DNA of 62,157 bases, filler included, from Craspedostauros australis (taxonomy: Eukaryota), in assembly GCA_030167865.1 (NCBI GenBank). It is 6 parts of 6 records of this genome, joined end to end, with 100 filler letters (N's around TTAATTAATTAA, not from the genome) between each part and the next. Parts side by side here need not be neighbours in the genome. Positions count along the whole stretch, not along the records: positions 52,995 to 59,317 come from JALAGF010006682.1; 5 more parts are not named here. One strand, written 5' to 3'. Shown one piece after another: positions 22,606 to 62,157 of the stretch. A program made the translations under genes and the position numbers. How positions within the stretch are numbered: the first letter of the stretch is position 1; every line of letters begins with the position of its first letter. The notes below the pieces were generated by a model. The model was not told where the DNA came from. It made no database searches and worked only from the letters and a program-made list of their open reading frames with translations.

Positions 22606-25600
22606 ATGAAGGACGACAACGCTCTCTCCAACATTGACGACGTGGAGTCCGGCAGCACATCGCCATCTGCCGACAATGAGTCGCAATCCACCGATGAACT
22701 CCAGGCCGTCCGTGATGATGCGAAGCAGGACACGATGCACGTGCAGCGATGGAGGTTCCTGGTGACAGGCGCTCTATTGATCACTGCAGTCGCCGTCACG
22801 TGGTCGACGTATGCGGTATGTGGATGCAGGCATGCTCGTTGAGTAGCTGGATACCGATTGCGTGACCGATGTCAATGGGAGATGGTGTTGCTGTTCCAAC
22901 CTCGCTTGCTCACCACCTCCACCTGTACATCGCTCTCGTTTGATCTTCTTCCTTCCATCCTTCCATCCATGCATTCGTACGCATCCATTCACTTTTCACT
23001 CCAACATCGACTTCAATGCAATACAACCGAATTTCAACTCCCGTTCCACAGTTCCTCCACGATGAACAAGTGGACAGCTTCAGGACAGCCGTAAGTTACA
23101 TGCCGTTGTATTGGAGATGAGTACCCACACGCGAACGGCCTGTGCATAGCGATGCCATCCATTGCACCTCACGACGCATTCTCATTGTTCTGTCTCATCC
23201 AAACACTGTGCCATGCATGGTACTGTGCTACCCCCACTCTCTTTTACTCCACGATGCTCTGCAACAGTTCGATCAATTCTCTCGAACAGTGGGCGATGCT
23301 GCGCTGGAACAGCAAAGGAATCTCGACATTGGATTCGAAGGGTTGGCAAACGCGGTCTCGGCGCACGTTCAGAGCACCAACCAATCATGGCCATCTGTCA
23401 CCATACCGTTTTTCCGTACACACGCGGCCACATTCCTGCGCCAATCCAAGATGGAAGTCACCACCCTCCTGCACAGGGTTGATCGACATCAGATCGATGC
23501 GTGGGCGGAATTCGGGGAACAGAACCATGAAGCCATGATGGTCGAAACGCACATGCTGGAGAATGGGAACACCGACGATCTCGCACGTACCGATTACCAT
23601 CCCTTCATCACGCGGTCATCACCGAACGGTTTCATCAAGGACATCGACCGGGATTCGTACTTCGCGTCATGGGAGTACGCACCGGCGCCGTTCACGTACC
23701 AATCGCTGAATTGGAACGTCCTGTCCGTGCCAGAATACCTGGACGTTGCCAAGGCAGCCTTCGAGATGAGGAACCAGACGCTATTTTCCAGCGTGCGGCC
23801 GTACACGGCGGTGGTGTTCAGCGAGGAGGAGCATGAGGCGATGCACTCCGCTCTGGCGGATTCCAGCACGGAACATCCCCACACATTCTTCTTTCGGGTC
23901 GTCAACGCAGAGGTTGGCAATCCAGACTCGGAGATTGTCGCCTTGCTCGGAGGTGGAGGGTCCTGGGATGCCGCATGGCTGAACTTGCTCCCGGACAACG
24001 TGAAAGGGTTGTTTGCCATCATCAGCAACAGCTGCAATCAAAGCTACACCTACGAGATCAACGGCAAGGACGCGATCTTTGTCGGAGAAGGTGAGTTTTT
24101 TACGAGTTGGCTGGTTGGTTCCTATGGTCGCCTTCTACTTCTCGTGCATTTCCAACTGACACGGTTGACGCGCAATGTTGTTCCTTCTCTTGCTCCGTCT
24201 CCTCCCTTCCTCTCTTTTCTCATCTCTGCTCTTCTCGATGAATATTCGTTTCTGTGCTCAATGCTCTATACTCTCTCCGTATTCTGATCTGCTTGATCGA
24301 ATCCATCCCCAACAGGCGACAGACATGATCGTGACTACGAGAAGTACCGCAGGGTCGTCGATCTGGCAGTGTCGCATCATCCCAAGTTTGAATCGACGCC
24401 AGGTCACTGCCGGTACCGCATGGAGATCTATCCCTCGAAGGCTTTCGAGGAGACCTACGACAAGATGACGCCCGAAATCTTTACGATCTTCGTTGCCATT
24501 ACCTTCGTGATGGTGGCTGTGGTTTTCTTCGTCTACGACATGTTCGTGTACCGTCGAAACGAGAAGCTCATCGAGAATGCCGCGCGGTCCAACGCAATCG
24601 TTTCCACCCTGTTTCCAAGCAACATCCGCCGTCGGATCATCAAGAATGACGAAGTGAACGGCGGCACCGCCGACAAACGCATCACAAGCCTCAAGAACTT
24701 CCTCTCCGGGGATCGCGCCACCCACAACATCAAGAGCAAGCCGCTTGCCGACCTGTTTCTGGAAACCACGATTCTGTTTGCCGACATTGCAGGATTCACT
24801 GCTTGGAGCTCTGTTCGAGAACCAACGCAGGTCTTTACCTTCCTCGAGTCTGTCTTCGCTTCCTTCGACAAGCTGGCGAAGGCACACCGGGTATTCAAGG
24901 TCGAGACGGTCGGCGATTGTTACGTGGCAGCGACCGGGCTCCCTGACCCCAAGCCAGATCACGCAGCCGTCATGGTTGGGTTCGCCCGCGATCTACTGTA
25001 CCACATCGATTGCTTGACGAAGGATCTGGAGATCACTCACGGACCCGACACCGGCGACCTCTCGTTGCGTATCGGCATGCATTCTGGCCCCGTCACTGCT
25101 GGCGTGCTGCGCGGCGAACGAGCGCGGTTCCAGCTGTTTGGCGATACGATGAACACAGCTGCGCGCATCGAGCACACGGGCGAAGTTGGACGGATTCAGG
25201 TGTCATCCGACACCGCAGAATGCTTGCGGCAAAGCGGCAAGAGTGATTGGCTGATCCGCCGAGAAGGCACGGTGAATGCCAAGGGCAAGGGGGAGATCCA
25301 AACGTGAGTCCATTGTGTGGATGGTGCGGACTATGCGGATTCAACAGGGCTGGAATGGATTGATTGGGATCCATCGGATGGTGCACGGGCCGTCTGCTTT
25401 CTTGCTGGTGGTGCCAACGACCTGCCTGATGCCTTCGGGATTCGCACCATCTCATGCACCATGATTGCCCGCAGAGTACGCTCTACTTTCATTTCATTGC
25501 GTAATACTTGCTTTCATCTCGTCCTCACATCACCACCATCAAAACCTCTTCGCTCGCTTCTCGTTCGCTCCCATCTTCGTCGTGGTTCTCCGCTGCGCTC

Positions 25601-27179
25601 CTGTTTTGGCAACCCTCGTCGTTGCACTCGCAGGTATTGGATCACCGACGAGCATTCATTCGTCGATGGCAGCAACAAACTGGAGGCGAAGCAATCAGAG
25701 CGCGCGAACACAGTTTCCACCGACACCAACCGAAGCGAGACGGCGCCAATCAGTGATGAGCACACCGACAAACAAAGGCGGTTGGTCGACTGGAACGTCG
25801 AGATGATGCTTTTGATGGTGCGGCAGATTATCGCCCGCCGGAACGGCTTGAACAAGGCGAGCAAGAAAGGCTTCATGCATAGCAAGAAGGCAAGTCTGAC
25901 AAGCGCGACGTCCCAGGTGGAGGATTTCGTCCCGTTGGATGAAGTGCAGGAGATCATCCACCTCCCGGACTACGATCCAGAGATTGCCGATCATCAGCTC
26001 GATCCAGATCTCGTGGACGTTGATGACGCGGTGGTAGAGCAACTCCATGACTACGTCACGAACATCTCGCGCATGTACCGTGACAATCCCTTTCACAACT
26101 TCGAACATGCGTCGCACGTGACCATGTCCGTCATCAAGCTTTTGGCGCGCATCGTCGCTCCCACGGATTTGCAAATGGATTCCGACATGCGCGGCGGCAC
26201 GGACAATGCTGCGAATAGCAGCAGCGAAAGATCTGTGCACGGCAACCGCGGCCACCGCCACCGTCAGAACAGCAACGACAGCACCGCTAGCGGCAGAATC
26301 GAGCAGTTCAACGATGAACACCAGCAGAAACAGCACCATCATGGCATCACGGAGACCTTGCACGATCACACGTACGGGATCACGTCGGATCCGCTCACCC
26401 AGCTCGCGTGCGCCTTCTCGGCTCTGATCCATGACGTAGATCATAACGGCGTCCCGAACGCCCAGCTGGTCAAGGAGAACACACGAATCGCACAGATCTA
26501 CAACAACCGATCTGTGGCGGAGCAGAACTCGCTGGTGTTGGCGTGGGATCTCTTCATGATGGACGATTACGAAGAGCTGAGGGCCTGCCTGTGCCCTACC
26601 AGCAAGGACCTCGCGAGGTTCCGGCAGCTCGTCGTGAACTGCGTCATGGCGACGGACATCGTTGACAAGGAGCTGAAGCTGCTGAGGAACGGTCGTTGGG
26701 ATAAGGCCTTCCAGCACCGACACGAGGAATCGCACCACGACGCCGTCAACCGCAGGGCCACCATCGTGATCGAGCATCTCATCCAGGCCTCCGATGTTGC
26801 GCACACCATGCAGCACTGGCACATCTACCGCAAGTGGAACGAGCGCTTCTTCTACGAGTGCCACGCTGCCTATCAGAATGGCAGGGCGGGGGAAGATCCC
26901 ACCATGAACTGGTACAAGGGCGAGCTGGGATTCTTCGACTTTTACATCATCCCGCTGGCCAAGAAGCTGAAGGACTGCGGCGTCTTTGGCAAATCCAGCG
27001 ACGAGTACCTGAACTACGCCATGGCCAACCGCAAGGAATGGGAACGGCGTGGCGAGGAGATGGTGAGCGAGATGGTGCGCAACCTGCACGCTCACGATAA
27101 TGAAGCGCACAGCAGCATGCCGCAGGTGCGACGGAGCGATTCGCACATCAGCATCCCGTATGGAGAACGCAGAAAGTGA
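22606..27179 (+). CDS. Receptor-type guanylate cyclase / cyclic nucleotide phosphodiesterase fusion, 5 exons (22606-22815, 23052-23090, 23268-24090, 24316-25303, 25634-27179), 1201 aa
   Basis: All four introns are GT-AG and phase-compatible; two TM helices flank an extracellular domain; class III cyclase motifs FADIAGFT, KVETVGDCY, RFQLFGDTMNTAARIE, KGKGEIQTYW; PDEase_I motifs FHNFEHASHV, HDVDHNG, ATDI, ASDVAH. Confidence 0.95.
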
Positions 27180-30605: not shown

Positions 30606-30705
30606 NNNNNNNNNNNNNNNNNNNNNNNNNNNNNNNNNNNNNNNNNNNNTTAATTAATTAANNNNNNNNNNNNNNNNNNNNNNNNNNNNNNNNNNNNNNN
30701 NNNNN
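30606..30705. other. Artificial contig spacer
   Basis: N44-TTAATTAATTAA-N44 (stop codons in all six frames). Confidence 0.97.
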
Positions 30706-35990: not shown

Positions 35991-36090
35991 NNNNNNNNNN
36001 NNNNNNNNNNNNNNNNNNNNNNNNNNNNNNNNNNTTAATTAATTAANNNNNNNNNNNNNNNNNNNNNNNNNNNNNNNNNNNNNNNNNNNN
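35991..36090. other. Artificial contig spacer
   Basis: N44-TTAATTAATTAA-N44. Confidence 0.97.
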
Positions 36091-41455: not shown

Positions 41456-41555
41456 NNNNNNNNNNNNNNNNNNNNNNNNNNNNNNNNNNNNNNNNNNNNT
41501 TAATTAATTAANNNNNNNNNNNNNNNNNNNNNNNNNNNNNNNNNNNNNNNNNNNN
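41456..41555. other. Artificial contig spacer
   Basis: N44-TTAATTAATTAA-N44. Confidence 0.97.
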
Positions 41556-44500
41556 CCGGAAGCCAAGCTTGATCAGGATGTCCACAAGCTTCTTGTTCCA
41601 CTGCCTTGCGCTCTGAACCAACCCGTAGATGGTCTTCTTTAGTAGCAGGCATTCATCCGGTTCATGCTCCATTCCCTTGGGGCATTGCATGTAGATCTCT
41701 TCCTCGAGATCTCCGTGCAGGAAGGCGGTTTCGAAGTCGATGATGATGCTGTCTGTCTTCAACAACATCTTCATGGTCAGCATCACTCGGTACGTTGCAT
41801 CGTGGATAACNNNNNNNNNNNNNNNNNNNNNNNNNNNNNNNNNNNNNNNNNNNNNNNNNNNNNNNNNNNNNNNNNNNNNNNNNNNNNNNNNNNNNNNNNN
41901 NNNNNNNNNNNNNNNNNNNNNNNNNNNNNNNNNNNNNNNNNNNNNNNNNNNNNNNNNNNNNNNNNNNNNNNNNNNNNNNNNNGTCATGTCGTAGAACTCC
42001 TTATTGATGGCCTCCCGCCATTTCCTCCGCTTCGCTGGATCTGCATGATCCCAGCATTCCTCGAAGGTGGTTGGGTCCAACATCATAGCCGTGTATGCGT
42101 GCTCGGATGTCTCGTTCCAATCCCCTCTCTCGACTCGTTGGTTCGCTGCAATGAATTCATTCAGTCTCATTCTCCCTTCTGTGGTGTCGATCATTAGACT
42201 CGCCACGTCTCGATTGAACATGGATATGTTCGAATGGAAGTCTCGTTCGCCCGTGGTTGCATGGATCGTCTCAGCTGTCTCAGCTGGTTCATCCTCTCCA
42301 CTGCTTGATTCTGAGTCGGATTCATATCCTGGTGGATTGTTGGACGGGACCAAACCCCGTAGCATCCTTGACATCTTTGCCACAGGTCTTGCTGGGGGTT
42401 GCTCGATCTCTCTGCCTTCGGCGGCTTGTCTTCGAGTCACCCGTGTGTCGTCCCTTCCGGATTCATCGTCGTCTTCATCGTCCGATGGATCGTCCCCTTG
42501 GGCAGGTAGCAGTTCATCTTGCTTCGATGCATAGCCTGCGGTGTCTTCGTAGTCTGTTCCGGACTCTCTGCTTCGATCAGCTGACACAGCCTTCGCCATC
42601 CTTGCGATACTTGTATCACGCTCCCAAGTCACCTTCGTATTGCGGAGTGCTGCTCCTGCATCGAAGTCGTCGTCTTCCAGATCCACCATTTGTGTTCTGT
42701 TGGCATTCTCAATACCCTTGAATTGCCCATACGACTGGTTCATCCATGTCACGTCTCTGGTGATTAGGATTCTCGTGGTTGCCAGGTTCATCATGCGGTA
42801 TACTCCATTCGCATGAGACTGTCCGTATCCGACGAACATAGCTGGCTTGGATCTGTCATCCAGTTTCGCTTTGATTGCGCGACTGCCGATGTAGACCATT
42901 CCAATCTCCCCGAAGATACGCAATCCTCTCGCGTAGGTTGGGGTCTGTCCATTGAGTAGCAGGCATGCAGGATCCCTTGATTTAGTCTCGACGATGTTCT
43001 CGATCTGCGTTGCGTTCCTTGCTGCCTCTGCCCATAGTTTGCCGCGCAGTTGTCTCGGTAGGTGCGCCTGGTTCAGCATTGACCTGACCTTACCATAGAG
43101 GACCGCGAATTTTCGTTCCACTCTTCCATTCTGTTGAGGAGTCGAAGTGGCAGTGTACTCGAAGGTTGGGGCGAAGCCTGCTCTTAATAGTAGGGCCTCT
43201 GCGCTGTAGTTCTCTCCTGCATTGTCACATCTGACATTCTTTACTGTCACTTGTTGATTGCCTGATAGCCACTTCAACAATGATAGTAGTCTGGGGCCGA
43301 CCTCGCTCTTTTCCTTAACGAAGTAGCTCCAGCAATAGTCGCTGTAGTCGTCGATGACCAGCAACCAGTATTTTCCATGTCCAAAGCTCGTTGCTTGGAC
43401 ACTTGAAGTATCCATGAAGAGTCGTTCTCCGACCTTCTTCGCCCGTAGTTGGAGAGTTTTGGTCAGGCGTTTTTGCTTCGCCTTTCCAATCGCGCAGTCC
43501 TTGTATGGATTGAGGGTCCCAGTCACATTCCATCCATATTGTCTCGCCGTCCTGGAGATCGTATAAGAGTCAACGTGGCCTAGCATTTTATGGAGCTTAT
43601 TCACATCCATGGGCTTCTTTGTATCAAGCCCGACATTCGCCATCTCCTCGCTCTTAGGGGCAGGCACCATGTTTACACCGAGCACGCATCCGCTGTGAGT
43701 TGCCATGATCCAATCGAATCGGATGCGCTGCCCGTTCTTGTCCAGCACGATGATCACGCCCTTGTTACTGATGTTAAACCCGTTATGGAGCGCCTTGCCG
43801 ATGCTGAGTAGGTTGACCCAGAGCTTAGGCACGTATCGCACTCCCTTCAGGATGATGATGGCGCTCTTACCGTCCTTCTGCATCACCCGCATGCGTAGGT
43901 CACCGACCTTAGTGGCGCGGAGGAATTTTCCGCTTCCCACCTTCACAGAGAAATTCGAGAGGCGCACATTAGTCATGCCCTCATCATTATTAGTCAGGTG
44001 ACATGATGCGCCAGTATCTCCCAACCATGTGTTTGCTTCATGTTGGTCTGGTGCAATCAACTCGCGATTGCTCTCACTCGACTCGTGATCCTTGATCACC
44101 ATGGCCATCTCGTGTCCGAATCTTGCTCGGTCGAAGTGTTCCATCAGTTCGAACTTATATTCCGGGCTCCCCTCCATAGGTCTGACCTTTGGGAGTTCTG
44201 GGCACTCCAAGCCGTCTCGCACTTCGGTGTCGTCCCAGCCTCTCATCCATGAGACGCGTTGGGTACACAAGCGGCTCATCCTCAAGATGAGGTGTTTGGG
44301 GAGTAGTGGCAGCCTTTTCTCTTTGAGCAGTTCGTTGACGACCACAATCTTGCATGATAGGTCGTATGCTCCATCGAATCCGATTTGGGTGAGCATGTAG
44401 TAGAGCTCTCGGGTTCCCAAGCAGTAGGCTCTCTCCCGAATGGATTCCCTCCTCACGTCGTAGCACAAAATTGCGCCATTGATTCGAACCTGCACGGCTT

Positions 44501-44777
44501 CCAAGACGTTGGATAGAGAAACCCTCACAGCGTCCTCCACTGAGTCGAATCGGCTCAGGATCGCTCGACGGCGAATCCTTTCCGGTTCGGTGGTTGTCGG
44601 GATCTTTCTGAACGCCCAAGGGGCACGGATCTTGAACACGTTGAATTCGGTGCATTCTGTACACCAGGAGTACATCGCTCCACGCGCGAGGCAGATTGGG
44701 CACCATGCATCCGTTCTGCTGCGTTCGCACACGCGGTCGATTTCGTCACGCAGGAAGTAGTCGATGGCGCTGCTCAT
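41556..44777 (-). mobile_element. Ty1/copia element A, pol (protease-integrase-RT, truncated by contig end)
   Basis: WLGDTGASCHL protease; HKMLGH zinc finger; integrase FMDTS, VRCDNAGEN, PQQNGRVER; RT IDFETAFLHGDLEEEIYM, KKTIYGLVQSARQW. Confidence 0.95.
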
Positions 44778-45734
44778 GTGAGTGGCCGTTGCTTCCTCTC
44801 CTTGCGCAGGTGGCGCATTGTTGACATCGACCCCGGCATTGCGACTTCGGTGTCCCCAATGCTCTCGTCTGATTCGAGCAGGTCATCGTTCATGAGGTCG
44901 CGGATGTCTTCGTTGGTTGGCGATTCGACTCTCTCGGTCGAAGGATACGACTCCATGATTTCGAAGAGATCCTCTTCGAGTCCATCCTCGAGTTCGATCT
45001 CATCGAGATCGTCAATCTCAACGAAACCACCGTCTGTGATGACGAGTGCCATATCGTCCATCCCGTCGTCGGCGTCCATTGCCATGTTGGCGCTCTCATC
45101 TTCCTTCATTGCTGCCTTCAGCTTGAAGCATTGGATGATCTTGTGCCCTGCCTTTCCGCAGTAGTTGCACTTGCCATCGAATCCCCCTTTCTTGGATCCG
45201 CCCTTGGCGTCGGCGTGGTTGCCCTTCTTCTTGGACCCACCGCCTCTCTTGTTGTTGCCTCCCTTGGCTGGCACACGACAGTCCGCCTTCTTGTGCCCGT
45301 AGGCACCACAGTTGCGACAGTTTCCCTTGAACTGTCCAGCTTCGAACAGAGCGAGCTCCTCGTTGCTGCTGTTGCCTGCGCGCTTATAACCATGTTTGAG
45401 ATGGTGGCGGTCGTAGGTAAGGCTCACAGCTTCGCGGATGTCGCCCACAGTCATCTCTCGTTCCTTTCCGTGGAACTTGAGTTCGAGCAGCTTCACGTCC
45501 ATCTCGTACTCGCGGCAAAGTGCGTTGAGCACGAGCATGTTGAACTGCTCCGCATCGATGATCACTTCCTGGTCGATCAGTCGGTTGCGAAGGACCTCCA
45601 TGNNNNNNNNNNNNNNNNNNNNNNNNNNNNNNNNNNNNNNNNNNNNNNNNNNATCCGGATTCTCTCCCTTCTTCAATCGCATCGCATTGAGCTCCGCCAG
45701 CAACTTTGCCTTCATAGGCGCAGTGCGCTGCTCG
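44774..45734 (-). mobile_element. Ty1/copia element A, gag (5'-truncated by insertion of element B)
   Basis: Two CCHC knuckles CRNCGAYGHKKADC and CNYCGKAGHKIIQC; gag-like frame continues upstream of 45715 up to the LTR of element B. Confidence 0.9.
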
Positions 45735-46592: not shown

Positions 46593-47845
46593 CATTCAAG
46601 AGCAGCAGGCTGAATGAGCGAGGAAGAGGAACTGAAAGACATCCCTCTGTCCAATCCGACTATCAAGAGAGAAGAAGGTGCGAGTGAGGCTCCACCACGA
46701 CAAGAGAAGGAAGCAGCCGCGGCTACTGTCCTATCAGGCGCAGACGCAAGCGCGATCGACGAGACCGAAGAAGAACGGTCTGCAAGACTACACCGTAAGG
46801 AGAAGAGGATTCTCAAGGCGGTCAAGCAAGAGGAGACTGGTGTGACGAAGAGCATTCGCACAGCCAAACAGGGTGGGAAAAGTGAGACACCATCAGGAGG
46901 AGAATTTGTGAGCAAATCAATCCTCGCGAAACAACCAGCGAAAGTCGAAGAAACGACAACACAGAAACAAACGGAAATCAAGGGCGCGAGCGCACCAACA
47001 ACGAAACAACAAGACAAGATGGCAACGCCAGCCAACACGAACAAGCAACGCATCAAGGCGCCGATGTTCAGTGGTGAACAGGAAGATTACAGCGCATAGG
47101 AGTCCCAAGCAAAGGCATACGCTCGTACACAGAAGACGAGAGACGTGATGTTGGGCAAGACGAAGATCCCAACAGTGAGTGAGATCGCGGCAGCCACCGA
47201 CGACATCAAGGAAGCGATGGAGGAAACCTACGAGCTGGGATGCGACTGCTTCAGCAATCTGATCCTCATGATGGATGCAGAGAAGGGAAAGGGCAAGCAG
47301 GCCATCCAATACATCAATCAATGCATCTCCGACGATTACCCTAAGGGGAATCCACACGCGGCGTGGAACGTTCTCGCGGAGAAGTTCCGTCCATCCGATG
47401 CGGTGACGAAGATCAAACTCAAGCGTCAATTCAACAACGAAAATATGAAGAAAGACTCAGACCCCAACATATACATCACGCGACTTGAGATACTATGCTC
47501 GCGTCTCCATGATGTCAGATACACGATCACCAACGAGGAAATGATCATGCAAATCCTCAGTACGGTGAGCGTGGAATACAGAACACACGTCGTGAGTTTC
47601 AACCACCAACTCACGTTCAATCCGACAGTGATCACCATCAACACGATCAGAAGAGTACTCCATGAAGCACACGCCACTCATCAAGGCGGAAAGGCGTATA
47701 TCGACGACTTCCAGGACAGCAACACGAAGAGCAATGACACCAGCTTCACGAGCACCGGTAACTTCAAGGGTACCTGTCACAACTGTGGTGTGTATGGTCA
47801 CAGATCTGCAGATTGCCCTGAGCGTAAGAAATCGAACAACAAGAA

Positions 47846-47846
<1 letters not shown>

Positions 47847-47876
<30 letters not shown>
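47847..47876 (+). repeat. (AAC)10 microsatellite encoding poly-Asn in gag
   Basis: Read directly from the sequence. Confidence 0.9.
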
Positions 47877-47878
<2 letters not shown>

Positions 47879-48082
47879 GATGAACGGAAAACGCAACAAC
47901 AACCGCAACAAGGGAAGCGGCTTCAACGGCAAGTGCAACTACTGTGGCATCTTCGGACACCGCGAGGCGGAGTGCCAAAAGAAGAAGGCCGACGAACAGG
48001 CCAACACAGCAACAGAAGGACATGACAAGAGCGGACACGAGATGGTACTCTCAGCAAAGGATATGCCGCTCTGCATGTTGGT

Positions 48083-48957
48083 TGTCAGGAATCGGGTGTT
48101 CTGAAACACCATATTGCCGCACCTCCCAAGAGTAAGGAGCCGAACGTGGGGATATTCTACATTACCGCAACTCCCACGTTTGATCATTGTGACACAGAAA
48201 AATGTGAGCTGCACGTAACCCGCGGTGGAGAACACCACGTGCCGAATGCGAACCATGCCTGACGTTCATGACTCCAATGCAGGAATGCGAATCACACGTG
48301 TATGNNNNNNNNNNNNNNNNNNNNNNNNNNNNNNNNNNNNNNNNNNNNNNNNNNNNNNNNNNNNNNNNNNNNNNNNNNNNNNNNNNNNNNNNNNNNNNNN
48401 NNNNNNNNNNNNNNNNNNNNNNNNNNNNNNNNNNNNNNNNNNNNNNNNNNNNNNNNNNNNNNNNNNNNNNNNNNNNNNNNNNNNNNNNNNNNNNNNNNNN
48501 NNNNGTCGACCAGAGTTGATCGGAGATGATCGGAGATGTCTGATGATCAAGGAGCTGAGCGAGCTCCCAACCAAGGCGTTCCCGCAACAGATGAGAGATC
48601 GTGATCTGATCGAATGAGCCGATCTGTGTCACGCCTACGACTCGGTGATGTCTAAGGCATCGGAACTATCAGCGGAGGACAACGTGCTAATGTGCACGAA
48701 TATGGGGTACTCGGTGNNNNNNNNNNNNNNNNNNNNNNNNNNNNNNNNNNNNNNNNNNNNNNNNNNTGCATGCATGTCCATGATGAATTTGCGATGAATG
48801 CAAGATGGATGCCTGCTAGACCAACAGAGGGACCCATGGCAATCTCAGGAGGAGATTGGACTTTGCAATCGAGAGCAATGAAGAGCTCACAGTTCAGAGA
48901 AGTAGATTCTAACAAACGATTAGTTTTCTGCTATCACACCACCCCGGATTTCCAACA
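48083..48957. mobile_element. Inserted TG...CA element, copy 1 (solo-LTR-like), TSD GTTGGT
   Basis: Ends TGTCAGGAATC...GATTTCCAACA; GTTGGT at 48077-48082 and 48958-48963; internal N gaps make the length approximate. Confidence 0.9.
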
Positions 48958-49751
48958 GTTGGTGTCCGACGACTACATCGAAGACTCCTTCTTCGATAAC
49001 TTCATGTGCGTTGGGAGTGACGACGATGTGCAGGATGATGAGATCGTCCCGGAAGGGCTCAGCGAGGAGCCCATCGCCCACGAGGTGGACCCAAGACGCG
49101 AAGTGAGCTACAAATGCTGTTTCAACGTGAACGACCTGATCGGTCCATATGGCGATGGAGCTGAGATGGGCAACGAGGCTATCGACATCGACGTCGAGGA
49201 AGCCATGAGCGAAGATGACGACGACGCCGACAAAGACGGCGCAAATGAAGACGACGACGACGCCTCCGGAGACGAGGCGAATCGCGGCGAAGCGCCGCCT
49301 CCTCCAGCAGTGGGGAATCACAGAACGGGCATCTTCGATGAAGAGGACAGCAACGAAGCTGAGGATCGTCCGAGCGACACCTTCAATCTCCACAAACACG
49401 TCGTCTATCCAATCAGAATCCAATTTCCATCGGAACCAAACCCCAGAAGAGTCGACGACATCTACCAACTCGAGACATTCCCAGAACCAACGATCACTGC
49501 AAGAAGAATGCAGAAGCAACTCATCTACGATGCAGTGTTGACTGCCGGACTGCCAATGTTCCCAGGAACCGTAAATGGGGGACTACTGCACGTATGGGTG
49601 GACATGGTGAGCACCATCCTGTCCGAGAACTTCAAATCGATTGAAGATATCCTCACCAACGCAGCCATCCTCAATCGACTCTTGGAGGCAGCAGGAGAGG
49701 AACCATTCCCAGAATTAGATTTACACTATGTCCTCGGAGGATGCATGCAGG

Positions 49752-50569
49752 TGTCAGGAATCAGGTGTTCTGAAACACCAAATTGCCACACCTCCCAGGA
49801 GTAAGGAGCCGAATGTCATGATATGATACATTACCGCAACTCCCACCCTTGGATCTTTGTGACAGAAAAATGTGAGCTGCACGTGTTTTGCGATGGAGAA
49901 CGACACGTGCCGAATGCGAACCGTACCTTGGCGTTCGTGACCTCAATGCAGGAATGCCAATCACACGTGAATGTCGCAGGGGGCAGGGATGTTGGAATCG
50001 TGACCAACATCACGATACGAGTGACTACGGCCCCCATGTTGCAGCCAATGAGAAAAGAGTACTGGAGGAAGGCCAATGTCACGAAGTGTGAGATGGCCTG
50101 TGAACGAACCTGGTATGAGGAACCTCCAGGAAGCCGGTGAAGTGATCAGCAAAGTAATCAGAGAAACGACAGGAGAAGCATCGGAGATGATCGGAGATGT
50201 GTGATGGTCGAGGAGCTGAATGAGTTCCCAACCAAGGTGTTCCTGTGACGAATGGGAAACCGTGATCTGACCGAATGAACCGATCTGTGTGATGCCTACG
50301 ACTCAGCGATGTCTAACGCATCAAAACTATCAGAGGAGAACAACGTGCTTTTGTGCACGAACATGGGGTGCTCGGTGGTGCATGCATGTCTATGATGAAT
50401 TTGCAATGAATGCAAGATGGATGCCTGCTAGACCAACAGAGGGACCCATGGTGATCCCAGGAGGAGATCGAACTGTGCAATTGAGAGCAATGAAGAGCTC
50501 ACAGTTCAGAGAAGTAGATTCTAACAAACGATTAGCTTTCTACTATCACACCACCCCGGATTTCCAACA
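49752..50569. mobile_element. Inserted TG...CA element, copy 2 (818 bp, solo-LTR-like), TSD TGCAGG
   Basis: Same termini as copy 1; TGCAGG at 49746-49751 and 50570-50575. Confidence 0.92.
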
Positions 50570-52894
50570 TGCAGGTGCTCCTGCGCGAGCGACCACAGGT
50601 CACACCATACGATCCAGTCACCAGAACTCATCGAAACAGCACAGTCCCAACGGACTACGCACAACTACCCAACGACATGGATGATGAAGATCATCACAAC
50701 CCGTACGACAAGTATGGAGTTCACAAAGATGACGACGATGGCAGCTTCAACGACGAGATAGCTGCAGCAGCCGTGGAGCAGCTCCATGAGCTGAGCACCA
50801 AGTACAAGGACAAGGTCAACAAGGACACCTGGCTCGCCGACAGCAGAGCTTTGTGTCATATCGTCAATTTGTACGCCGCTCTGTTCAACGTGCGGCACAT
50901 CAAGTCTTTTGTCCAAGTGGGAGACAGCACGAAGCTGGACTCTCCCAAGATGGGATCCATTTGCTTGAAGGTCAAGCAACGAGACAACACTGGCCACATC
51001 ATCCGGCTCGATGATGTGAAGTACACACCGAAAATGGCGGTGAACCTTTTCTCTACGAACAAGGTTCTGTACAACGGTTACCAGCTTGGTAACAACGGCA
51101 TTCTGATGGACATCATCAACGGATCCGGAACAAAGATCGTGTTCGATCGAGTCTTCCCCACATCCAATGGATTCATCACAGGAGTGCAGATGCATCCCAT
51201 CAAGCCATCGGACGACGACAAGGCTTCCGCAGCTATCATCAAGAATCCATCCAAAGAGATCAGCGCAGTGAACTTGCATCGAATGCTTGGCCACGCGCCA
51301 CTCGAGACCATGAAGCGGACGGCCGCTCAGTACGGATGGAAGATCATTGGAAAGATGCCGGTATGTTGCGACTGCGCGGTCGCGAACGCGAGAGTGAAGA
51401 ACATCCCGAAGGCAACAATCCCAAGAGCAACTCGCCACGGCGAACGTTTCTTCATTGACATTAGTTACACTAAACACATAAGCTTTGGAGATAAACGCTC
51501 CTGGACCCTGATCGTGGACGATTGCACGGACTACTGCTGGAGTTTCTTTCTCAAGAACAAGAGTGACCAACCAGGGTACATCAAAGGATTCGTCCAGACG
51601 ATCAAATCACAGACTGGTGATCAACAAATCATCTTCCGAGGAGACAACAGCGGAGAGAACAAATCCACACAGGATATTCTCATCGATGCAGGACAGAACA
51701 TGAAATTCGAATTCACAGCATCGAACACGGCGCAACAGAGCGGTAGAGTGGAACGCAAGTTCGGCGTACCTCTACACCAAGATCCGCTCCATGCTCAACG
51801 GAGCACAGCTCGACGAAGAGTATAGTCATGGCCTGTGGGCAGCAGCTGCGAGCACTGCTACCGCCATCGCCAACATCACTGTAGCGAAGAATCAGAAGGA
51901 GTCACCACATCGCCAATTCTTCGGCAGTGATCCACCATATGCGGATGCACTCCGCACATTCGGAGAGGTGGGTGTCGTGAAGACCACCTACGGCGGGATC
52001 ACCACCAAACTCAAGAACAGAGGAGAAGAGATGGTGTTCATCGGATATGCACACCAACATGCGTCAGGAGTCTACAACATGTACAGGCCATCAACAAAGT
52101 CACTGGTCTGCTCTTGCGACATCAAATGGCCCAACCAATCATATGGACAGTTCCGTGGCTGGGCACCAGCACCGAACATACCCAGCGAAGCAGGAACAAC
52201 GGACGCAGACGGCTTCACAACCATTGGACGGAAGGGAGCGATGTCAAGGACGGCAACACGTCAAACGACAGAACCAAGGAGAGTATCCTTTGCAGACAGC
52301 AACAGGTACTACATCCTATCAGACAGCGATGATGAGGATAATGAGGACGACGGAGTAGTGACTCAACTAATTCAGAATGACGAGGAAGATCGGAGCGAAC
52401 CCAATCATGAGGATGACGAAATCCTACCCTCCGGCGACGAAGCCGATGATGAGACAGGCGTTACTCCTCCGAACACACCAGCGAGGTCTACACATGACAC
52501 ACCATCAAGATCTCCACCAAGCAAACCAAACAAGCATGACATAGCTAGAAAGGAGAGGATCCGACGTCACGAAGCACGAGGCAGGAAGGGAGAAGCTAAT
52601 CCCAAGTCAACTGCAGGGAAGAGTATTCCCAGAGCTCTGCGCGAGCTCGCAGACTTCAATGAACGAGGTCGAAAGGAGGAAGGCTATGAGAGCAAGTCAT
52701 CATCCAATGAAGCGAGTGATGAACTCAGCGATGAGATAACCGACGAATCCAACAATGAGACTACAGATGATGAAGAGATTGAAGACGAAGGAGAAGAGAT
52801 CGAGATCACTCACCATAGCACAACAGGGCTGTACGGGATGAACGCAATCATCACCGAGGCACCAGCGATCGACATCGGACTGTCGATGCAGGAC

Positions 52895-52994
52895 NNNNNN
52901 NNNNNNNNNNNNNNNNNNNNNNNNNNNNNNNNNNNNNNTTAATTAATTAANNNNNNNNNNNNNNNNNNNNNNNNNNNNNNNNNNNNNNNNNNNN
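52895..52994. other. Artificial contig spacer
   Basis: N44-TTAATTAATTAA-N44. Confidence 0.97.
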
Positions 52995-55116: not shown

Positions 55117-56317
55117 GATGGACTGTTGGATGGTCCCATCCGAACACCTGAAAAAGAGACTAANNNNNNNNNNNNNNNNNNNNNNNNNNNNNNNNNNNNN
55201 NNNNNNNNNNNNNAAAAAGAGACTAAACAATTCAAAATCAGAACAATGTCGCTGAAACAAAGAACAGCAAAGGGTTAAATTGGATCGATGTAGTCGGCTG
55301 TCAAAGGCTGAAACCCGAAAGAGATCGAAAAATGCGCATATCCATCGGTCCATAAAACTTAAAATAGGATCTAACTCAAAAATGCAACGGTTAATTATTT
55401 GTATTAGACCTAAAAGGATTATGAATATGTGCTTGGTTAGTATGTAGGAGAGAAAATTTCTGGAGGTCTATTTCAAACGATTGGTCGACTCACTGATCGG
55501 GCTCATAGTTTCCTCTCCCCTATTTCGATTCATGTCGCAACGTTTTGCCAATTGGAACAAGGGATTTTGTTTTTGCATTTTGTGCTACAGCTGTAGCCAA
55601 CGTTTTCGGCCACAATTGGATAGTTTTGGATCACAATAACAGCTGTGTAGATCGTGGTACACTTTCTACGCAAGTCCCGAACAAAAACAGGGCAACAATG
55701 GCATCAACCACAGTCAAACTCTCAGGACTTGGCTCGTACAGACCTTCCTAAACTCATCTTTCCATTGTGGAATCACATGGCGTTTATATATGCAATACCA
55801 AAGTTTGGTGGCTGTTGCTCTCTTTCTCGGCGAGAACTGATACGATCCATCAAGCACCTCATCATTCACGGACGCCATTGGCTTGTGTTTGGCGTGTTTT
55901 CTTGTTCTGGTTGTGCCATGCAACTGATCCAATCACCCCTGACGTCATGATGACGCAAGCGTTGGAACCAGATATCTCCGAACTTGCCGCCGAAACTTTG
56001 GATCGAAGTGGTCAAATATCATTCCGCCTGCCAAGGGACCACTAAAAGCAGGCATACCAACACACCAATAGGCTCAACAAACACATCAAGATCGACGAGG
56101 CAGGAGTAACAACAAGGTAGTGTTCTTACTTTCCTGGACAGTAATTCGTCTACAGTTTACGTATATGTAAAGAGATATTCGATTGAGTGTCAACAAAATC
56201 AAGTCTGAGGTCGGGAAAATGGATCCAAATTCTGTAGCCAACTGTAACCAACAATTGGCGATGTTTTAGGTCTGCTTGATAGCCACTCATGTTATCGTGA
56301 CCGTTTTACATTTGGCG

Positions 56318-57041
56318 CAGGTCGTAACCTCGCAAGCGGCCATTTTGCTTGATTGGAATAGGCTTAAATCCTGGGCTTGAACAGCGTTTTGAGATGCGCA
56401 GCCGCACATTGCCTTCAGGCCTGATTAAGGGCCTTTGCTATCATAGTGTTGGCTGTTACGGATGCCTGCCGGAGTGGTTTCTGTTTTGGGACGTGACGGC
56501 GCAGAGGCTGCCAGACGCACATGTTCCCGCACAGGACGGCGGTCCCAAACTCAGAGCCACAACAGACGCGACCTCACAAGCGGCCTTTTGCAGGACCGGA
56601 ATAGGCTTAAACCTGGGCTTGAAAAGCGTTTGAGATGCACAGGATAGCCGCTCGTTGCCTTCAGGCCTGATTAAGGGCCTTCTTTGGCCAGCACAGGCCT
56701 TCGCTATCCTATTAGTATTGGCTAAAACGGGTATCTTGATACAATGCCTGGAGGAGTGGCTTCTGTTTAGGGGAGCGATGGCGCAAAGGCTGCCAGACGC
56801 ACATGTTCCTGCACAGGATGGCTGTTTGTCGGGCTCACACACAGAGCCACAACAGGCGTAACCGCGCAAGCGGCCGTTTTGCTTGATTGGAATAGGCTTA
56901 AACCCTGGGCTTGAGAAGCATTGTGAGATGCGCAGGGTAGCCACTCGTTGCCTTCAGGCCTGATTAAGGGCCTTCTTTGGCCAGCACAGGCCTTTGCCAT
57001 CATGATGTTGGTCAATGTGGCCATCTTGATGCTGCCGGAGC
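56318..57041 (+). repeat. Tandem array of ~2.6 units (periods 244 and 290 bp) upstream of the NikA-like gene
   Basis: Anchor C(G/A)CAAGCGGCC at 56331, 56575, 56865; invariant blocks GGAATAGGCTTAAA, CCTGGGCTTGA, TTGCCTTCAGGCCTGATTAAGGGCCT. Confidence 0.9.
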
Positions 57042-57196
57042 TAGAGCCAGAGCCGGAGCCAACGACGACCGAAAAAATGAGGGATCTGCTCACAACTTTT
57101 CCTCCCCCACCAAGGAAAAGCGCCGCACTCCACAAAGCTCGCCAACAACCTCGTGTGTGTCAAACAACAAAACAAAGAACGAAAGAGAGATCCACC

Positions 57197-59116
57197 ATGA
57201 AGTTCTCCACCGCTTCCCTATCCCCGCTCCTGCTCGGAGCCCTGGCAACCGTAAGTCCCACCACCGCCGATGTCAACTCTGCTGCCCTCAAAGCAGCAAT
57301 CGAATGCAACAGCAAGTTTGATCCTCTCATTTTCGTCCTTTTGGAAGATGAGGCGGTCAACGCGGCGATTGAAGACGATGTTCGCAACGATCTGGCCGCG
57401 GTGGGCTTCGATGTCGAATCTCGGTCCTTGTCCAAGGCCGAGATCAACATTGCCCGTCAAGGGGGCGACTTCCACTTTTCCATCAGCGAAACTTGGGGAG
57501 CCCCTTACGATCCTTTCTCATACGTAAGCGGATGGATCGATGGCAACGGCGGTGCAGGTGTCTTTCCCTCCATGGTGAACTTCGAAGCACCATCTACTCG
57601 CACAGAACTCCTCGGTAAGGTCAAGGATGCCCTCCAACAACAAGACCCCGTTGTCCTCAAGCCCAAATGGGAAGAAATCCACAAGTACTACCACGAACAA
57701 GCCATCATGTTGCCGCTCTACGGAAAGCGTATCCCGACGCTCTTCAACCGCCGCTTGACAGGATACGAGCCCGGGCATCAACAGTTTGACTATCCCGTCC
57801 ATCGCCTGCGTCCCGTTGATGGATCGTCCAATTCTGTGACGATTGCCCCCGGCGCCCGGACTGGTCTCTTCAAGACTGTCGGCACCATGAACGCCCACGT
57901 GTATGGCCCAAACGAGTTTTTCTCCAACAACTGGGTCTACGAAGGCTTGGTGGCCTACAGTGCCGGCGCTGCCAACGGTGGAGTCATTCCTGCCCTTGCC
58001 ACCTTCTGGGAGGTTGCACCCAATAACATCGGCGGTGACGATTACACCTTCACTCTTCGCCAAAATGTCAAGTTCCACGATGGTGCAGACTGGAACTGCG
58101 ACGTTGCCAAGCTCAACTTTGATCACATTTTTGCCGGGGCATTGACTTCGGAAAAGCACGGTTGGTATGGTGTGGGCCTCTACACCAAAGAATGGAAGTG
58201 CAACAACGACTACGAATTCGTCGTCCGTACCAACCAAAAGCACGGTCCATACTTGCAAGAACTTACACTCATTCGTCCAGTCCGCATGATCTCTCCCAAT
58301 GCCTTCGTGAATGGGAACAGCACTGATCCGCTCTCAGCCAACTCCTGTCACTTGGATTGGGGCACTGTCAAGGTTGAAGAGGGTAGTGAATTCAAAGAAG
58401 AAGTCAGCTGCGCAGGCATCCAAGACATTGCTGGTACCGGTCCCTTCAGCTACGTCACCAAGAACGTGGGAGACGGCATTGAAACGAGCGTCATTTTTGA
58501 GGCGCACGAATCATACTGGGGCGGCGCATCGGAAATCAAGCGCGTGGAAATTGTCCGCTACGCCACATCGGCAGAAGTCAAGGAGGCCTTGCTGAGTGGC
58601 GAATTGGACATCGTGTGGGGTGCCGGCGTCTTGTCGGATGCTGACATCGTCGAAATCCAAAACGATCCCGCTATTTCTGAACAGATCCAAGTCTCTCATT
58701 CTGATGATGTCCAAAATGTCATCTTGCTCCTCAACTCAGGCAAGGCTCCGTTTGATGACATTAACGTCCGCAAAACAGTCATCCACGCCATCAACAAGGA
58801 AGCCATTGTGCAAAAAGAGCTCAGTGGTCTGCAACAAGTCGTCAACTCCATCTTCCCCCTCAAGGCCCCCTACTGCGACGTCGAATTGACTCCTCGCTGG
58901 GACTACGATCTCGAAAAGGCCGTCCTCTTGAGCTGTGATGGCAAGGCCGGAAACCCCGACAGCGACGACGACGACTCCGACGCCCTCGCCCTGGGTCTTG
59001 GTCTTGGTTTCGGTGCGCTCGCTCTCGTCATGGTGGTCGTCGCCATCACCCTCTACAACAAGAACAAGACTCTTCAGGAAGAACTCGAGATTAAATCTGG
59101 GGCTGTGAAAGCTTAA
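57197..59116 (+). CDS. nikA: NikA-like (solute-binding family 5) nickel/metallophore-binding protein, circularly permuted, with signal peptide and C-terminal TM anchor (639 aa)
   Basis: CCACCATG start, signal peptide MKFSTASLSPLLLGALA; TWGAPYDP, VYEGLV, YTFTLRQNVKFHDG, YLQELTLIRPVRMISP, GTGPF, NSGKAPFDDINVRKTVIHAIN; TM segment ALALGLGLGFGALALVMVVVAITLY; intronless. Confidence 0.9.
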   Translation: MKFSTASLSPLLLGALATVSPTTADVNSAALKAAIECNSKFDPLIFVLLEDEAVNAAIEDDVRNDLAAVGFDVESRSLSKAEINIARQGGDFHFSISETWGAPYDPFSYVSGWIDGNGGAGVFPSMVNFEAPSTRTELLGKVKDALQQQDPVVLKPKWEEIHKYYHEQAIMLPLYGKRIPTLFNRRLTGYEPGHQQFDYPVHRLRPVDGSSNSVTIAPGARTGLFKTVGTMNAHVYGPNEFFSNNWVYEGLVAYSAGAANGGVIPALATFWEVAPNNIGGDDYTFTLRQNVKFHDGADWNCDVAKLNFDHIFAGALTSEKHGWYGVGLYTKEWKCNNDYEFVVRTNQKHGPYLQELTLIRPVRMISPNAFVNGNSTDPLSANSCHLDWGTVKVEEGSEFKEEVSCAGIQDIAGTGPFSYVTKNVGDGIETSVIFEAHESYWGGASEIKRVEIVRYATSAEVKEALLSGELDIVWGAGVLSDADIVEIQNDPAISEQIQVSHSDDVQNVILLLNSGKAPFDDINVRKTVIHAINKEAIVQKELSGLQQVVNSIFPLKAPYCDVELTPRWDYDLEKAVLLSCDGKAGNPDSDDDDSDALALGLGLGFGALALVMVVVAITLYNKNKTLQEELEIKSGAVKA

Positions 59117-59317
59117 TTAGTTATCAAGTTGAGATTCAATGAGGGACAGACTAGTACCGAACACGGTATCAACCCGATGGGAGAAATTCCTGTTTTGGCG
59201 CGAAATCTTCCGACTTGATTGACCACCAAACCTTTTTCTCCTCCTTTCTCTCCTCCATTCACGAATCCATCATGACTCAAACCTGACCGACCTGACTCAC
59301 ACCCCACCTGGGAACTA

Positions 59318-59417
59318 NNNNNNNNNNNNNNNNNNNNNNNNNNNNNNNNNNNNNNNNNNNNTTAATTAATTAANNNNNNNNNNNNNNNNNNNNNNNNNNN
59401 NNNNNNNNNNNNNNNNN
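59318..59417. other. Artificial contig spacer
   Basis: N44-TTAATTAATTAA-N44. Confidence 0.97.
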
Positions 59418-60439: not shown

Positions 60440-62157
60440 TGTTCTCGATGTGTCAAGGTATGACTTCTCGTGTTCACGTTGTAAGTTGGCCTTGATGTTC
60501 TTGGTGAAGCCGTCGCTTGTGTTCTGCTCTGACTTGACGAAGATGATTTTGATGGTCTTGTTGGTTACCATGTTCCTCATGTAGTGATGGCGCACGTTGA
60601 TGTGCCGCGATCATTGGGATGTTGATGGGTTCTTGGCGATGAAGATTGCTCCGATGTTGTCCACNNNNNNNNNNNNNNNNNNNNNNNNNNNNNNNNNNNN
60701 NNNNNNNNNNNNNNTCTTCACTGGGACGCCCACACTTTCGAGTAGCTGCATGACAAAGAAGATCTCTTTTGCTGCTTTGGAAAGAGCAACGTATTCTGTT
60801 TCGGATGAGCTGAGTGTGACGGCCTTCTGTGCTTTGGATCGCCAACAGGTTGGTACCTTGCACAGGTATAGGATGAACCCTCCTACGCTGATTCTCGTGT
60901 TCTTGTCCCCTGCGTATTCGCTATCACAGAAGAGCTCCATGTCCCAGCTGTCGTCGTCTGGACGTGCTAGATGGATCTTCAATCCATAGTCCTTTGTATC
61001 GATCACATACTTGATGATCTGATACATCTCCTTCATTGCGGCCTTGGTGGGCCCGATCAATACCTTGGAGAGTTCCCTCACAGGGTTCACGATATCTGGT
61101 CGCGAGTGCTTGATGAGGAAGAGTAGCATACCGACACCTCAGCGGTATTCGGCATGTTCTTCCAGTCCGACCTTCTGCAGTCCGTTATTGTCGGATGGTC
61201 GTACGATGATTTGGCCCAGGGTTCCCGGTGTCCCATAGCGTTGCATCTTCTCAACCTTGGTTCCGAACTCTTCGATGAGGTGTCGGATGAGATGGGGTTG
61301 ACGCAATGTCGCTCTAGTCTTGTCATGGTTCAGTTCGATGTTGCAGCTGAGATAGTCTCCGAGTCCGCGCTCGATTGTCACCTTGAATTTGCTGCCTTGG
61401 ATGTCCTTCAGGAATGTCTCCAGTGCCTTGGAGTCTCTGCAGCAGAAGCAATCGTCCACGTAGATGGCCACAATCATACTTCCTTTGTTCGTCTTCCTGT
61501 AGAACAGGCACGGGTCTGCTGTGCTCTGTTCGAAGTTGATATTCTTGAGGGTCGACACCAACATCTTGAACCATTGCCTGGCGCTCTGCACAAGTCCGTA
61601 GATTGGCTTGTGTAGAGTCAGGGTTTCGTCTGGTTGATGATCCATTCCGTTGGGGCAGTTCATGTAGATCTCCTCGTCGAGGTCTCCATGTAGGAATGCC
61701 GTTACGACATCGACGAGTGCGCAGTCCATCTTCTTGATNAGCATGATCACCATCATGACCCNATAGGTCACGTCATGGATGACAGGTGAGTAATGCTCTT
61801 GGAAGTCTACTCCTGCGACTTGTGAATAGCCACATGCAACGAGCCGTGCTCGATGTGTGCCGTTATGCTTTAGCTTGAAGACCCATTTGCACTTGCAGCA
61901 TCTGCGGCTGCGTGGGATGGCGTCTTGTTTGATCTTGCTATACACCTTGCGTGTATCCATTGAGTCGAACTCCTTTTTGATGGCTGCTCGATATCCCCTT
62001 CGATGGATGGGATCTGGGTGATTGAAGGCTCCATCGAATGTCGTTGGCTTGATGTGCTTCTCGGATTCTTCGCTCTGGTCCTGCATCGAAAATCTGATAT
62101 CAATCGCTGGTGTCTCGGTAATGATTGCATTCATTCTGTATAGTCCTGTTGTGCTAT
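60440..62157 (-). mobile_element. Ty1/copia element C, RT-RNase H, degenerate (in-frame TGA at 61139-61141, frameshift near 60612)
   Basis: CKWVFKLK, RARLVACGYSQ, VDVVTAFLHGDL, IYGLVQSARQW, IYVDD, SRPDI, FCDSEYAGD, LSSSETEYVAL, VDNIGAI. Confidence 0.95.

Follow-up and report, generated by a model that had tools for sequence, protein, structure and literature searches.

In a window of 62,157 nucleotides from Craspedostauros australis (assembly GCA_030167865.1), by which we mean the whole stretch of DNA analysed here, a single stop-free open reading frame (ORF; 57197–59116, + strand) encodes a protein of 639 amino acids that is circularly permuted relative to NikA, the nickel-binding protein of Escherichia coli. 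This permutation is real and far beyond chance. According to our analyses, the product is quite probably a type I membrane protein with a complete, circularly permuted fold of the NikA/CntA type (cluster C, SBP_bac_5), most likely an orthologue of diatom ZCRP-B, which would hold a zinc or cobalt chelate. Its chain would run from a signal peptide through the last third of NikA, a linker of about five residues, the first two thirds of NikA and a second short linker to a transmembrane (TM) helix and a 22-residue tail.

Relative to the E. coli K-12 NikA precursor (query taken from the annotated locus L001), BLASTP returned two blocks in swapped order: residues 228–585 align to precursor positions 36–348 (E 8e-45, 29% identity), and residues 52–174, which precede them in the chain, align to positions 372–489 (E 1e-8). 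A phmmer search of all PDB chains led to the same result, with residues 227–379 matching mature NikA 13–156 (independent E 9e-20), residues 397–578 matching 145–318 (independent E 2.7e-16) and residues 49–175 matching 347–468 (independent E 2e-4); NikA entries are at the top of this search (E 3.7e-45), followed by Staphylococcus aureus CntA. The swap is also seen against P0222, the nearest unpermuted eukaryote-type relative, of which residues 15–415 correspond to window positions 57815–58882 and residues 457–636 to positions 57266–57808. Viewed as a dot plot, the comparison with E. coli NikA amounts to two swapped diagonals, and no single collinear alignment to it was obtained. The cut maps to a surface helix-loop-strand equivalent to NikA precursor 335–365.

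The first-pass annotation, a reading of the sequence alone, had proposed the permutation from nine motifs, all of which occur in the translation in the order that it gave: TWGAPYDP (residues 99–106), DYPVHRLRPV (198–207), VGTMNAHVYGPN (228–239), VYEGLV (247–252), FTLRQNVKFHDG (285–296), HGW (321–323), QELTLIRPVR (354–363), GTGPF (413–417) and YDLEKA (570–575). It had also put the junction at about 57791–57841, a range that includes the computed one (Table 1). The N-termini of homologues begin alike and several pass the hydropathy threshold there, so that an N-terminal signal peptide is plausible, with a putative cleavage site near residue 24. The first block carries TWGAPYDP (W100, Y104) and Met126, the latter at the position of NikA His416, and the second holds Y236, W323, R360, GTGPF and an insertion with Cys384 and Cys405. 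The C-terminal membrane anchor read in the first pass corresponds to a hydrophobic segment lying inside a predicted helix, and equivalents of it are present in most full-length homologues. Finally, the tail follows a pattern recurring in the closest homologues: Tyr/Phe-Asn-Lys-Asn-Lys, then Glu-Leu, then Ala-x-x-Ala at the end.

Profile searches place the protein in the same family. The Pfam profile PF00496 (SBP_bac_5) is matched above its cut-off (151.8 bits vs. 32.4) in two stretches, the better of which, residues 263–578, covers profile positions 2–272 of 368. Among the NCBIfam models, the NikA equivalog TIGR02294 ranks first (244.8 bits, three stretches) and the CntA model NF047575 second (176.5 bits), with neither reaching its cut-off (393 and 800, respectively). 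Moreover, AlphaFold2, run with an alignment of 66 family members, yielded a confident model (mean predicted local distance difference test, pLDDT, 90.2; predicted TM-score, pTM, 0.84), including across the junction, where residue blocks 201–210 and 211–220 both have a pLDDT of 96. When compared to the PDB with Foldseek, this model best matches NikA of E. coli and Brucella suis (E 7e-21), followed by CntA of S. aureus (E 5.5e-18 to 1.1e-17). These alignments extend over about 385 columns, with TM-scores of 0.51–0.56 per target, as would be expected from a sequence-order-dependent aligner able to match the larger block only. In the ESM Atlas, the protein P0080 falls into a generic SBP_bac_5 cluster labelled Bacillariophyta.

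The permuted order is a family trait and not a quirk of one scaffold. Among 5.8 billion proteins, a word-indexed search brought up 94 close relatives at 40–73% identity. Where these are named, they come from Bacillariaceae sp., Thalassiosira profunda, Nitzschia inconspicua and a bolidophyte, Triparma laevis, and some of them sit on contigs of 0.56 to 3.5 Mb. The junction is crossed within one high-scoring segment pair by 89/94, the other five being fragments (353–425 aa) that start at or after it, whereas the 20 weaker matches of the same search are all collinear with NikA and none crosses the junction. In 92 of the 332 proteins collected, the block equivalent to the C-terminal part of NikA precedes the N-terminal one, and all 66 aligned full-length members share a junction of fixed length, in which QQFDYP... 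is followed by a Gly/Ser linker of 3–5 residues and TVTIAPGA.... Conversely, none of 78 bacterial and archaeal loci (one genome per species) has the permuted order: 76 show the NikA order and two a single block (these counts include L011 and L067, assigned to the NikA order on manual inspection; the script itself had given 74 and 4).

At face value, an artefact (mis-assembly, gene-model error or bacterial contamination) might seem a simple explanation for such an order, since the window is scaffolded from short pieces, with five artificial joins and many plain N runs, and the gene lies on a piece of only 4.1 kb (55214–59317). Yet this piece is uninterrupted and the ORF has no N, the same order and fixed-length junction recur in 66 sequences from many sources (contigs of about 3 Mb carry some of the homologues), confidence in the model stays high over the junction, and no bacterial locus is permuted. 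On these grounds an artefact or contamination was rejected, and we consider its probability negligible. It is the family evidence that speaks against contamination, because the eukaryotic neighbour genes of the window sit across scaffold breaks.

To place the permutation in the history of the family, we can rely on a sister set of proteins that are collinear with NikA (about 600–830 aa), recovered by an exhaustive HMMER search and a second word search. Its members include P0316 from the dictyochophyte Octactis speculum and one MMETSP transcript, as well as P0222, P0192 and P0146, and their C-terminal ends consist of a TM helix and, after it, the conserved motif (R/K)EKxGxPxF. In a 13-row alignment excerpt, 5/5 collinear and 5/5 permuted eukaryote-type rows share a two-cysteine insertion located after the IRP motif and before GTGP, which is absent from 3/3 bacterial rows, E. 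coli NikA included. A maximum-likelihood tree (LG+C20; 549 columns) was computed from 64 hand-chosen rows (27 permuted, 17 collinear eukaryote-type and 20 bacterial-type, five distant outgroup rows having been dropped), the blocks of the permuted proteins being reordered to the NikA order. In this tree, all permuted sequences group into a single clade (ultrafast bootstrap 100, SH-aLRT 96), seen in 99% of the 200 bootstrap replicates. The separation of the bacterial sequences is supported at 100/100, and the main collinear clade groups with the permuted clade (99/96), while P0146 and P0148 branch outside both; quick trees agree with this picture. The permuted clade is nested among collinear, tethered eukaryote-type relatives, apart from the bacterial sequences. 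With a bacterial rooting, the collinear tethered form is ancestral and the permutation single, which points to one rearrangement within an already tethered eukaryotic protein.

The tail motif itself deserves a separate comment. It was found in 46/75 collinear, 8/92 permuted and 0/51 bacterial-type proteins, to which two near-variants seen by eye (including the Triparma protein) can be added. The tree holds six permuted members matched by the regular expression and the two near-variants, all outside the crown group, and the second-deepest permuted lineage comprises five of these eight. In collinear relatives and in early-branching permuted ones, the motif comes directly after the TM helix; the tail of the window protein lacks it. 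It could act as a signal for sorting or endocytosis.

These relatives bear on when the anchor was gained. According to the first-pass annotation, a signal peptide and an anchor were added; yet, because unpermuted tethered eukaryotic relatives exist, the anchor predates the permutation. From the tree and the shared features, the ectodomain would have been rearranged once in a tethered eukaryotic ancestor, with the signal peptide and the anchor kept. The anchor, formerly attached at the old C-terminus, would have come to sit on a surface loop that was cut (NikA ~320–345). Conserved cysteines flank this cut on both sides: Cys580, at the new C-terminal end of the ectodomain, is present in 65/66 sequences, and a cysteine located 6–9 residues ahead of the first strand at the new N-terminus in 63/66 (over two alignment columns); in the window protein the N-terminal cysteine is residue 37. 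We propose that they could pair as a disulfide across the cut.

Circular permutations usually arise by duplication followed by loss of both ends. Such a route is plausible here, but no tandem-duplication intermediate (N-M-C-N-M-C) was found in the eukaryotic family, even when searching among longer proteins. Six candidates were considered and rejected: P0325, a fusion with a different SBP_bac_5 protein that has a garbled C-terminus; P0276 and P0303, in which the junction is crossed in appearance only, the alignment of P0276 running by chance into a fused PF01497 domain; P0333, a tandem of two permuted units that are nearly identical; P0334, a gene model with several domains; and P0204, a distant prokaryote-type double SBP_bac_5 showing only that such tandems exist.

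Two of these proteins have unusual architectures in their own right. P0276 (1079 aa) combines a collinear NikA-like domain with PF01497 (Peripla_BP_2), a TM helix and a REKQGKPIF tail, i.e., two binding-protein folds on one tether. P0333 (EukProt, 1320 aa) has one TM helix after its tandem units, and the collinear order reappears across its middle; it results from either a recent duplication in tandem or the merging of gene models. Eight other permuted members (P0044, P0062, P0069, P0076, P0078, P0082, P0084 and P0085) have a hydrophobic extreme C-terminus instead of a TM helix and tail. These ends resemble glycosylphosphatidylinositol-anchor signals, so that these members may be tethered by different means.

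It is tempting to see the permutation, fixed once on the lineage toward diatoms and bolidophytes, as adaptive: the anchor would have been moved and the orientation of the ligand cleft relative to the membrane changed, a new disulfide would replace the lost peptide link, and a bacterial-type binder would deliver chelated zinc or cobalt to a eukaryotic uptake route without a permease of the ATP-binding cassette (ABC) type, which would aid the zinc uptake of diatoms, one of very high affinity. We regard this scenario as speculative and rather doubtful.

The likely ligand was approached through the pocket of NikA, which comprises His416, Tyr22, Met27, Trp100, Tyr382, Trp398, Tyr402, Arg137, Arg97, Ser415 and Arg386 (PMC11091072, 2024). 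His416, in lobe II, is the protein's own metal ligand, the sixth ligand of nickel, whereas Fe-EDTA (iron-ethylenediaminetetraacetate) is bound without engaging it (PMC11091072); the title of PDB entry 3qim describes His416 as essential for nickel uptake. The equivalent columns were read from the HMMER alignment to NikA and from the 66-sequence alignment. The chelate-holding part is kept: five residues are identical in 66/66, namely Y236, W323, R360, W100 and Y104 (NikA Tyr22, Trp100, Arg137, Trp398 and Tyr402), and the sixth, F241 (NikA Met27), is Phe in 64/66. As for His416, it is replaced by M126, in a column with Met (41), Leu (16), Phe (8) and Ile (1). Other positions have changed too: K320 (NikA Arg97) is variable (Lys 19, Trp 17, Tyr 15, Arg 7), N84 (Tyr382) is a nearly invariant Asn, S125 (Ser415) is mostly Ala across the family, and the equivalent of Arg386 also differs. 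The first-pass annotation had read the aromatic and arginine residues as kept and the histidine as missing, and the family columns agree with it. Retention of the carboxylate-gripping part together with loss of the protein's own ligand fits a fully chelated metal, and it argues against a Ni-(His)2 mode like that of NikA.

The same annotation had gone on to interpret the protein as a cell-surface receptor for nickel (as Ni-histidine or a Ni-metallophore), supplying urease and nickel superoxide dismutase (Ni-SOD). NikA indeed scores best among the named families and tops the PDB matches in both sequence and fold, and the five chelate-holding residues are invariant. However, the TIGR02294 score lies under the cut-off, the ligating histidine is replaced by a hydrophobic residue in 66/66 members, four further pocket positions differ (R97, Y382, R386 and S415 equivalents), and the sole experiments on diatom NikA homologues report induction by low zinc and cobalt, not nickel (PMC9010474). 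The nickel interpretation is weak, and we hold it to be improbable.

If the ligand is rather a zinc or cobalt chelate, as we favour, the ectodomain would close around a metal held in a small carboxylate-bearing molecule, with Arg360 and the Trp/Tyr cage in contact with the chelate; given the hydrophobic residue at the position of His416, the metal would have no ligand among the side chains of the protein. Once bound, the metal would stay at the cell surface and then be internalised or transferred to another transporter, with no permease of the NikBCDE type involved. For E. coli NikB to NikE, tblastn gave a single chance-level match in the window (nikC, E 0.72), so that no NikB to NikE homologue is present there, in line with the first pass.

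Members of SBP_bac_5 also bind peptides, opines, glutathione and heme, and the protein could instead be a nutrient receptor or sensor for a non-metal small molecule of this kind (peptide, opine, glutathione or heme-like), its rise at low zinc or cobalt being indirect. This would agree with the lack of a visible protein metal ligand at the NikA position and with the fact that the available text of PMC9010474 reports no gain of cobalt uptake upon overexpression of ZCRP-B. Nevertheless, NikA and CntA, both binders of metal chelates, come out nearest in sequence, profile and fold comparisons alike, with DppA, OppA and HbpA trailing far behind, the carboxylate-binding arginine and the aromatic cage of NikA are invariant, and induction by zinc and cobalt scarcity is specific in three diatoms (PMC9010474). 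We thus judge a non-metal ligand to be about as improbable as nickel.

The preferred reading, a tethered binder of chelated zinc or cobalt, meets a known diatom system. Kellogg et al. (2022, Nat Commun 13:1995, PMC9010474) describe a diatom "bacterial extracellular solute-binding" protein that rises sharply at low Zn2+ or Co2+ in Thalassiosira pseudonana, Phaeodactylum tricornutum and Pseudo-nitzschia delicatissima, and name it ZCRP-B, for Zn/Co Responsive Protein B (XP_002297477.1 in T. pseudonana and XP_002183815.1 in P. tricornutum, in the supplement). It has 30.5% identity to NikA of E. coli (E 7e-49) and 25.6% to CntA, one predicted TM segment, and localises to the cell membrane as a yellow fluorescent protein fusion, in proteomes reported to be without NikB or NikC. 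Its authors propose a tethered high-affinity ligand of zinc and cobalt which would supply ZIP transporters or undergo endocytosis, in the manner of ISIP2a (PMC9010474). The window protein fits this description in every feature tested, and orthology, judged from family membership, is most likely.

Several points weigh against this identification. The comparison with ZCRP-B was made by description, and a TM segment is predicted near the N-terminus of the P. tricornutum protein, whereas the strong one of the window protein is C-terminal. Metal binding by ZCRP-B is a proposal, and the gain of cobalt uptake upon overexpression is reported for ZCRP-A, not for ZCRP-B, in the available text of PMC9010474. 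In the pocket, no obvious zinc ligand set (a cluster of His or Cys) was seen, and the invariant cysteines look like disulfide partners. With respect to the eukaryotic setting, the copia, fucosyltransferase and phosphodiesterase neighbours are not contiguous with the 4.1-kb piece of the gene, and the label "eukaryotic collinear" rests on the Octactis speculum protein, the MMETSP transcript and the TM and tail features.

With respect to novelty, the family is already known as ZCRP-B, and the permutation appears to be unreported. The main text and supplementary file 1 of PMC9010474, where a "complete sequence alignment" with NikA and CntA is shown, mention neither permutation nor rearrangement, nor is permutation mentioned in the available text of the two preprints citing ZCRP-B. 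More broadly, searches of the full-text literature, subscription journals being outside their coverage, yielded no account of a naturally permuted NikA, ZCRP-B or family-5 binding protein. Of the interpretation given in the first pass, the architecture stands and the role in nickel uptake is wrong or at least lacks support, while the tethering and the lack of NikB and NikC had already been published (PMC9010474). New here are the permutation, its origin in one event among tethered relatives of collinear order, the preservation of both signal peptide and anchor, and the missing histidine ligand.

For specialists the finding is moderately interesting, with a practical use in junction-based discrimination. 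ZCRP-B serves as an ocean field biomarker of zinc stress, and in one preprint apparent ZCRP-B matches turned out to be bacterial NikA (10.1101/2023.11.05.565706). The permutation offers a simple structural test for separating diatom-type proteins from bacterial NikA in field data: peptides or reads that span the junction, or that join the old mid-fold to the TM helix, arise from the permuted form only. Conversely, an end-to-end alignment, homology model or tree that treats the protein as collinear misplaces about 180 residues, including half of the binding pocket.

The surroundings of the gene are summarized in Table 1. As short pieces make up this scaffold, arguments from neighbourhood across the joins are weak. 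The fucosyltransferase and phosphodiesterase ORFs are typical eukaryotic genes, and the retroelement ORFs are broken by N runs. Spurious ORFs on both strands traverse the tandem repeat directly upstream of the gene, which could be promoter sequence, a remnant of a mobile element or an effect of assembly.

Table 1. Parts of the permuted gene and other features of the window
Feature	Position	Strand	Details
Signal-peptide-like leader, residues 1 to ~24	57197..57268	+	Hydrophobic LLLGALATV; pLDDT 45–53 over residues 1–20
NikA last-third block (mature NikA ~347–500), first in chain	57269..57820	+	phmmer, BLASTP and P0222 alignments
Junction, residues 209–213, old fold C-terminus to old N-terminus	57821..57835	+	Conserved junction, pLDDT 96
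NikA first-two-thirds block (mature NikA ~1–320)	57836..58951	+	BLASTP; Pfam SBP_bac_5 263–578
Short acidic and Gly/Leu linker, ectodomain to membrane helix, residues 586–598	58952..58990	+	pLDDT 66–69 over 581–600
Single transmembrane helix, residues 599–617	58991..59047	+	Kyte-Doolittle mean 2.57 (19-residue); AlphaFold helix 593–632
Short cytosolic tail, residues 618–639, and stop codon	59048..59116	+	Tail pattern recurs in closest homologues
293-bp tandem repeat, directly upstream of the gene	56462..57001		Tandem Repeats Finder; 1.9 copies, 84% matches, score 778
GT10 fucosyltransferase-domain ORF	9927-11636	+	
3'5'-cyclic nucleotide phosphodiesterase-domain ORF	25317-27179	+	
Ty1/copia-type retroelement ORFs	41508-45715 (-), 47145-52942 (+), 61139-62134 (-)		gag, zinc knuckle, Pol beta-barrel, SH3-like, RVT_2
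Artificial joins	30606-30705, 35991-36090, 41456-41555, 52895-52994, 59318-59417		44 N + TTAATTAATTAA (12-base stop linker) + 44 N

Five systems can be compared to the window protein. ZCRP-B is the closest in description: it is likewise a diatom SBP_bac_5 protein with about 30% identity to NikA (30.5% in PMC9010474, 29% here), one membrane-spanning segment, a mostly extracellular bulk and no NikB or NikC partner, and its homologues are widespread in marine protists (PMC9010474). ISIP2a (phytotransferrin), proposed there as a model for ZCRP-B, has no sequence similarity to it (PMC9010474) and is a functional analogue only, i.e., another diatom metal binder tethered to the surface by a single TM segment and induced by metal scarcity, which differs in having another fold and in binding iron.

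E. coli NikA (PDB 1uiu, 1zlq, 3dp8, 3qim), the periplasmic binder of Ni-(L-His)2 or metal chelates in the NikABCDE importer, has the same fold, is the best match by sequence and structure, and shares the equivalents of Y22, W100, R137, W398 and Y402, which are invariant in the family. Unlike NikA, the window protein is permuted, tethered, endowed with the Cys-Cys insertion, devoid of adjoining nikBCDE genes and below the TIGR02294 cut-off, with His416 replaced and the equivalents of R97, Y382, R386 and S415 changed. S. aureus CntA (Opp1A; PDB 5yh5, 5yh8, 5yhe), a binder of staphylopine-metal complexes, belongs to the second-best family by profile and fold, and it binds nickel, cobalt and zinc as a chelate complex (PMC9010474); it differs in being collinear and partnered with the CntBCDF permease, the window protein being far below the NF047575 cut-off. 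Finally, the unpermuted TM-anchored NikA-like proteins of marine eukaryotes, for which we found no published name, share the Cys-Cys insertion and the C-terminal TM helix and form one clade with the permuted proteins, apart from bacterial NikA, but keep the NikA order, with the anchor after the old C-terminus, and are about 27–36% identical to the window protein. As they persist beside the permuted form, the states before and after the rearrangement are directly comparable.

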